Assembly (NCBI RefSeq): GCF_003334765.1
Contig: NZ_QOWT01000004.1
DNA from: Escherichia coli
Lineage (GTDB): Bacteria > Pseudomonadota > Gammaproteobacteria > Enterobacterales > Enterobacteriaceae
Strand: one strand, 5' to 3'
Length of the DNA stretch: 64,000 nt
A program made the position numbers and the translations under genes. Shown here piece after piece: positions 14,308 through 14,334 of the stretch. Below the pieces are notes generated by a model, which was given only the letters and a program-made list of their open reading frames with translations, had not been told where the DNA came from and ran no database searches. Every line of letters starts with the position of its first letter. Position 1 is the first letter of the stretch.

Positions 14308-14334
14308 TTATCGGCAAGGGACGGGTAATCTTTA
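14308..14334 (-). promoter_or_regulatory. Sigma-28 (FliA) class 3 promoter for flgMN
   Basis: Minus strand reads TAAAGATT-N11-GCCGATAA, a perfect match to the sigma-28 -35/-10 consensus, ~40 nt upstream of the flgM ATG and inside the 3' end of flgA. Confidence 0.8.

Follow-up and report, generated by a model that had tools for sequence, protein, structure and literature searches.

PflgM, the FliA-dependent promoter of flgMN in Escherichia coli, is located in the flgA-flgM intergenic region

We analysed a sigma-28 promoter motif found upstream of flgM in a 64-kb stretch of Escherichia coli DNA (referred to below as the window). The site is almost certainly PflgM, the known class 3 promoter from which FliA (sigma-28) drives the E. 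coli genes flgMN; it lies within the larger class 2 unit flgAMN. PflgM has already been published, and experiments have mapped the site in E. coli K-12. It constitutes one arm of the FlgM/FliA checkpoint, which couples the expression of late flagellar genes to the completion of the hook-basal body. This checkpoint is textbook knowledge, and the confirmation of PflgM brings no new biology. The present analysis corrects the position of the promoter, which is intergenic and not within flgA, and quantifies its conservation profile across the Enterobacteriaceae.

Comparison with complete E. coli genomes identified the window as the chromosomal flg region of this species. The gene positions derived from the ORF list agree with the RefSeq annotation of the best-matching genome, in which the segment corresponding to positions 13400-15300 carries murJ, flgN, flgM, flgA and flgB. 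The features discussed below are listed in Table 1.

The sigma-28 motif, TAAAGATT-N11-GCCGATAA, occupies positions 14334..14308 of the minus strand. It was read from this strand and then re-extracted by a script, which reproduced the coordinates given in an earlier interpretation based on the nucleotide sequence (referred to as the sequence-only reading). According to that interpretation, the motif matches the FliA consensus in both elements and in their spacing, and this proved correct: relative to the sigma-28 consensus TAAAGTTT-n11-GCCGATAA (PMC2859248), PflgM contains one mismatch in total (A for T at position 6 of the -35 octamer), and the N11 spacing is exact. The site thus has the sequence features of a sigma-28 class 3 promoter, namely a -35 and a -10 octamer close to the consensus and an 11-bp spacing. 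In the equivalent octamer of the aer promoter, sigma-28 activity is abolished by a single base change at position 1, 3 or 5 (PMC2859248). Relative to the predicted transcription start site (+1), the -35 octamer of PflgM extends approximately from -34 to -27, and the -10 octamer from -15 to -8. The distance from the last base of the -10 element (14308) to the flgM ATG (14264) is 43 nt, in agreement with the "~40 nt" proposed previously.

Table 1. Position of PflgM, its neighbouring genes and related features in the window
Feature	Position	Strand	Basis or remarks
flgA, class 2 gene	14340..14999	minus	ORF list and RefSeq annotation of a 99.9% identical genome
flgM, anti-sigma-28 factor; leads the class 3 flgMN transcript	13971..14264	minus	ORF list and RefSeq
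flgN, export chaperone; follows flgM on the flgMN transcript	13550..13966	minus	ORF list and RefSeq
flgB	15154..15570	plus	ORF list and RefSeq annotation
-35 octamer TAAAGATT of PflgM	14327..14334	minus	7/8 matches to TAAAGTTT
11-nt spacer ACCCGTCCCTT of PflgM	14316..14326	minus	length invariant; sequence varies except for the last T
-10 octamer GCCGATAA of PflgM	14308..14315	minus	8/8 consensus matches
Predicted class 3 +1 (A)	14300	minus	derived from the construct of PMC7549644; 7 nt between -10 and +1
Remainder of the 36-nt class 3 flgM leader	14265..14299	minus	Shine-Dalgarno GAGG at 14276-14273
PflgK, class 3 flgKL promoter TCAAGTCC-N11-GCCGATAA	22454-22480	plus	identical to the published FliA ChIP-seq motif

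The strength of the match and its statistical significance were observed directly. PflgM is the sole sequence in the 64 kb with no more than one mismatch to TAAAGTTT-N11-GCCGATAA. When up to three mismatches were permitted, the window yielded 3 matches versus 0.60 expected, a number reached in none of 100 shuffles; one of the other two matches is the flgK promoter. We also scored the window with a position weight matrix (PWM) built from 16 other FliA sites (Table 2 of PMC4183435), from which flgMN was left out and in which the spacer positions were ignored. The score of PflgM was 24.49 bits (the maximum possible being 25.91), which ranked first on both strands of the window, whereas the maxima of 100 simulated 64-kb windows (first-order Markov model) averaged 14.69 bits and never exceeded 19.98. 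Such a result, i.e. a score above those of all 100 simulated windows, argues against the view that the motif is a chance, non-functional sigma-28-like sequence, comparable to the many weak FliA sites born by drift, and that flgM is transcribed exclusively from the class 2 promoter of flgA.

The PWM also detected two weaker sigma-28-like matches, at positions 48163-48190 (plus strand; 17.6 bits) and 16388-16415 (plus strand, inside flgD; 16.4 bits). Neither was accepted as a FliA site, since both scores fall within the simulated range and both sequences are missing from the published ChIP-seq list; they probably occur by chance. A sigma-70 promoter at the site of PflgM was also rejected, since the only sigma-70-like match nearby lies on the other strand and the number of such matches does not differ from the shuffle expectation.

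The sequence-only reading had placed the promoter inside the 3' end of flgA. This placement is incorrect: the flgA stop codon (TAA) is at positions 14342-14340 (ORF list and RefSeq CDS), the pentanucleotide GCTGT (14339-14335) separates it from the -35 element, and the 75-nt spacer between flgA and flgM holds the entire motif. Because TAA ends at 14340 and the -35 element begins 5 nt further on, PflgM is wholly intergenic, and neither of its elements overlaps the upstream ORF, as would be the case for an intragenic promoter. We measured the distance between the stop codon and the -35 element in 76 loci in which the flgA stop could be placed. It was 5 or 6 nt in 62 of them, 26 nt in 10, 31 nt in one and 114 nt in three. 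This distance is never negative, i.e. the motif and flgA overlap in 0 of the 76 loci, and PflgM is therefore intergenic throughout.

These coordinates refute, for the core elements, an intragenic arrangement in which recognition elements lie within the 3' coding sequence of flgA and the promoter and the protein constrain each other, as described for the motA promoter in flhC. With a motif that starts at 14334, downstream of the stop codon, and with the gap being consistently positive, we regard this arrangement as very improbable. The nomenclature used by Fitzgerald et al. 2014 points in the same direction: flgMN is written without parentheses, unlike (flhC)motAB-cheAW (PMC4183435), and a later paper by the Fitzgerald group explains that parentheses around gene names designate intragenic promoters. 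In favour of the intragenic arrangement, RNA polymerase contacting the DNA upstream of the -35 element would reach the terminal codons of flgA, given the distance of only 5 nt between the stop codon and this element. PmotA resembles the intergenic PflgM in being a sigma-28 promoter of a downstream class 3 operon, located near an upstream flagellar gene. However, the elements of PmotA are situated within the coding sequence of flhC and constrain FlhC residues, while those of PflgM are wholly non-coding. A promoter "inside the 3' end" of a gene is thus a description that suits PmotA and flhC, but not flgM.

The region of PflgM is highly conserved. Each of the 5426 complete E. coli genomes contains a match to the 1.9-kb segment 13400-15300 (best identity 99.9%), and in 12 of them the identity is below 95%. 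The 96-nt junction at positions 14255-14350 is present once in each of the 5426 genomes, with at least 95% identity in every case (at least 99% in 4903 genomes and 95-99% in 523), and it is 100% identical to that of K-12 derivatives. In divergent E. coli strains, E. whittamii and E. albertii, substitutions affect the 5-nt gap, the spacer, the leader and the bases that immediately precede the ATG; the octamers carry no substitution in this alignment.

A search with FlgM, limited to one genome per species, provided 80 loci from approximately 20 enterobacterial genera, including Citrobacter, Salmonella, Enterobacter, Buttiauxella, Lelliottia, Cedecea, Kosakonia, Phytobacter, Atlantibacter and Leclercia. 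Sufficient upstream sequence was available for 78 of these loci, in which the best PWM match was sought within 200 nt upstream of flgM. All 78 scorable loci contain a site of at least 18 bits, invariably with the N11 spacing. The sequence TAAAG is invariant (79/79 sequences, approximately 20 genera), as is TGCCGAT among the 68 distinct sequences aligned on the motif; position 7 of the -10 octamer is A in 97% of the latter. The T directly preceding GCCGATAA is also invariant, although the search pattern did not demand T at this position. The mean information content per position is 1.80 and 1.82 bits in the -35 and -10 octamers, respectively, 0.95 bits in the spacer and 0.78-0.86 bits in the flanks. 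Two conserved blocks separated by a drifting spacer are, judged from the alignment, the signature that would be expected of a two-element promoter. Such conservation over approximately 20 genera, while the spacer sequence drifts, also speaks against a chance origin of the motif.

FliA occupancy, selection by the holoenzyme and FliA-driven expression of flgM have been reported in published papers, which concern the same promoter. The site described here and the class 3 flgMN promoter PflgM (flgMp) known from E. coli K-12 and from Salmonella are the same object: the 28-mer is identical to the FliA ChIP-seq motif of strain MG1655, the flanking genes are the same, and there is no difference of substance, the window strain being another E. 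coli (best match 99.9% over 13400-15300). The FliA ChIP-seq peak assigned to flgMN in E. coli K-12 MG1655 (FAT score 48) has the motif TAAAGATTACCCGTCCCTTGCCGATAAA (Table 2, PMC4183435), a 28-mer identical to that of the window. Moreover, genomic SELEX performed by Shimada et al. 2017 with the reconstituted RpoF (sigma-28) holoenzyme in vitro produced a peak (intensity 15.0) at K-12 position 1129438, which falls in the flgM-flgA spacer (PMC5493296). Occupancy of PflgM by FliA-RNA polymerase has thus been found by both ChIP-seq and SELEX on a sequence identical to that of K-12. Together with the conservation presented above, these data bear out the original designation of the site as a textbook sigma-28 promoter of flgM.

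Genetic evidence concerning the contribution of PflgM to flgM expression is also available. The overlapping operons flgAMN/flgMN are supported experimentally, and in an flhD mutant the overexpression of fliA restores flgM expression to wild-type levels or above (PMC4183435). In RNA-seq analysis of a fliA deletion strain, the value for flgM decreased from 451 to 318, with no significance flag (PMC4183435), which indicates that under those conditions most flgM RNA is independent of PflgM; the opposite balance is cited by another paper. The modest, non-significant effect in this one data set is the observation that would agree with a chance, non-functional motif. Nevertheless, that explanation is contradicted by the strong in vivo occupancy by FliA (FAT 48), by the FliA-driven expression of flgM in the flhD mutant and by the choice of this region by the holoenzyme in vitro (PMC5493296), and we consider it exceedingly improbable. 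The preferred interpretation, also that of the sequence-only reading, is that a functional class 3 promoter lies inside the class 2 transcript flgAMN; both the overlapping operons and the restoration of flgM expression by fliA support it.

The organization of the genes is consistent with this interpretation. flgA, flgM and flgN are all encoded on the minus strand, and no terminator-like site was found on this strand within 13400-15300, including between flgA and flgM; the same orientation and uninterrupted course are what defines the overlapping class 2/class 3 operons flgAMN/flgMN. In the mechanism supported here, (i) the sigma-28 holoenzyme recognises TAAAGATT and GCCGATAA, 11 bp apart, in the flgA-flgM spacer, (ii) transcription would begin approximately 7-8 nt past the -10 element, at the predicted +1 (14300), (iii) the product would be a flgMN mRNA with a leader of approximately 36 nt, and (iv) read-through from the class 2 promoter in front of flgA, which depends on FlhDC and sigma-70, also supplies flgM and flgN mRNA. 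Export of FlgM by the hook-basal body releases FliA, which in turn raises the synthesis of its own inhibitor, creating a negative feedback loop. The FlgM/FliA feedback arrangement, which had been suggested for this locus, is a regulatory reading supported by the experiments performed on the identical sequence and by the conservation computed here.

The position of the class 3 start was deduced from the flgM::gfp fusion of Romilly et al. 2020, which spans +1 to +105 relative to the transcription start site and ends after codon 23 (PMC7549644). Subtraction of the 69 coding nucleotides from 105 leaves a 36-nt leader, which places +1 at 14300 (14264 + 36); this exact position is inferred from the construct. 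In most genera, the equivalent position is occupied by A, usually within AACA.

We also considered whether the conserved blocks may act in the flgAMN class 2 transcript at the level of RNA (for example as a site of processing, as an attenuator or as a signal for translational coupling of flgA and flgM) and not as a DNA promoter. The region is indeed transcribed within flgAMN, and the invariant CCUC and GAGG sequences of the leader could pair. Against this, the blocks fit the sigma-28 consensus base for base with the canonical 11-nt spacing. In addition, the 66 nt downstream of the predicted +1 (14300-14235) are no better structured than shuffled sequences (z = 0.18), and the alignment of 25 diverse leaders shows no covariation. 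RNAalifold predicted in these leaders only the 4-bp CCUC/GAGG pairing; since both partners are invariant in 25/25 leaders, covariation evidence is absent either way. A conserved structure of the leader RNA was therefore rejected on the basis of the z score, the CCUC/GAGG pairing being uninformative in this respect. Furthermore, no Rfam family matches in or near PflgM, and the minus strand has no terminator there. An RNA element is, in our opinion, extremely unlikely to account for the conserved blocks, which are better explained by the sigma-28 promoter.

On the minus strand, pairing of CCUC (14283-14280) with the Shine-Dalgarno sequence GAGG (14276-14273) could give rise to a 4-bp anti-SD hairpin. 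The leader also contains an ATG (14296-14294), located 5 nt past the predicted +1, which opens an 11-codon reading frame (14296-14261, minus strand) whose TGA overlaps the flgM ATG. A conserved upstream ORF was rejected, as the frame, its length and its stop vary across 65 distinct leaders, and several genera lack the ATG; the 11-codon frame at 14296 is probably incidental.

Compared with most other Enterobacteriaceae, Escherichia has a class 3 flgM leader that is shorter by approximately 17 nt. The distance from the -10 element to the ATG is 43 nt in Escherichia (14265-14307 in the window) versus 57-66 nt elsewhere, with 43-45 nt in a few Buttiauxella, and the extra segment present outside Escherichia is GC-rich and variable. 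One may speculate that the 5-6 nt placement of the -35 element after the class 2 stop codon is functionally constrained and, separately, that the loss of approximately 17 nt from the Escherichia leader changes how translation of the class 3 flgM mRNA in particular is controlled, but we consider these ideas unlikely. In the first case, for example, sigma-28 initiation could be modulated, through promoter occlusion or coupling, by elongating class 2 polymerases or by ribosomes that terminate on the read-through transcript.

Another site of the window, PflgK, resembles PflgM. It is likewise recognised by FliA and located within a unit that is read through from class 2 (flgB-J/KL), with the same perfect -10 element GCCGATAA, and it also starts 5 nt after the stop codon of the class 2 gene preceding it (flgJ, which ends at 22448; the flgK ATG is at 22514). 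Unlike PflgM, PflgK has a weaker -35 element, TCAAGTCC, and a lower score (20.95 versus 24.49 bits).

Secondary sigma-28 promoters, flgAP2 and flgBP2, have been described in the flgA-flgB intergenic region (PMC12781870). They share with PflgM the dependence on sigma-28 and the location in the same gene cluster, but their -35 elements are poor, and flgBP2 requires a DNA distortion induced by MarA (PMC12781870), whereas PflgM is close to the consensus and stands alone. The flgA-flgB intergenic region of the window (15050-15100) contains a perfect GCCGATAA at 15090-15097 (plus strand) with a poor -35 element (PWM score 14.5 bits), and GCCGTTGA at approximately 15059-15052 on the minus strand. These two sequences agree with the divergent promoters flgBP2 and flgAP2 of PMC12781870.

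Rfam matches above the gathering score were obtained elsewhere in the window for (i) the RNase E 5' UTR element (28528-28864, minus strand), (ii) the SraB sRNA (30725-30893, plus strand) and (iii) the PyrC leader (6744-6793, minus strand). These matches are as expected for the corresponding stretch of the E. coli chromosome.
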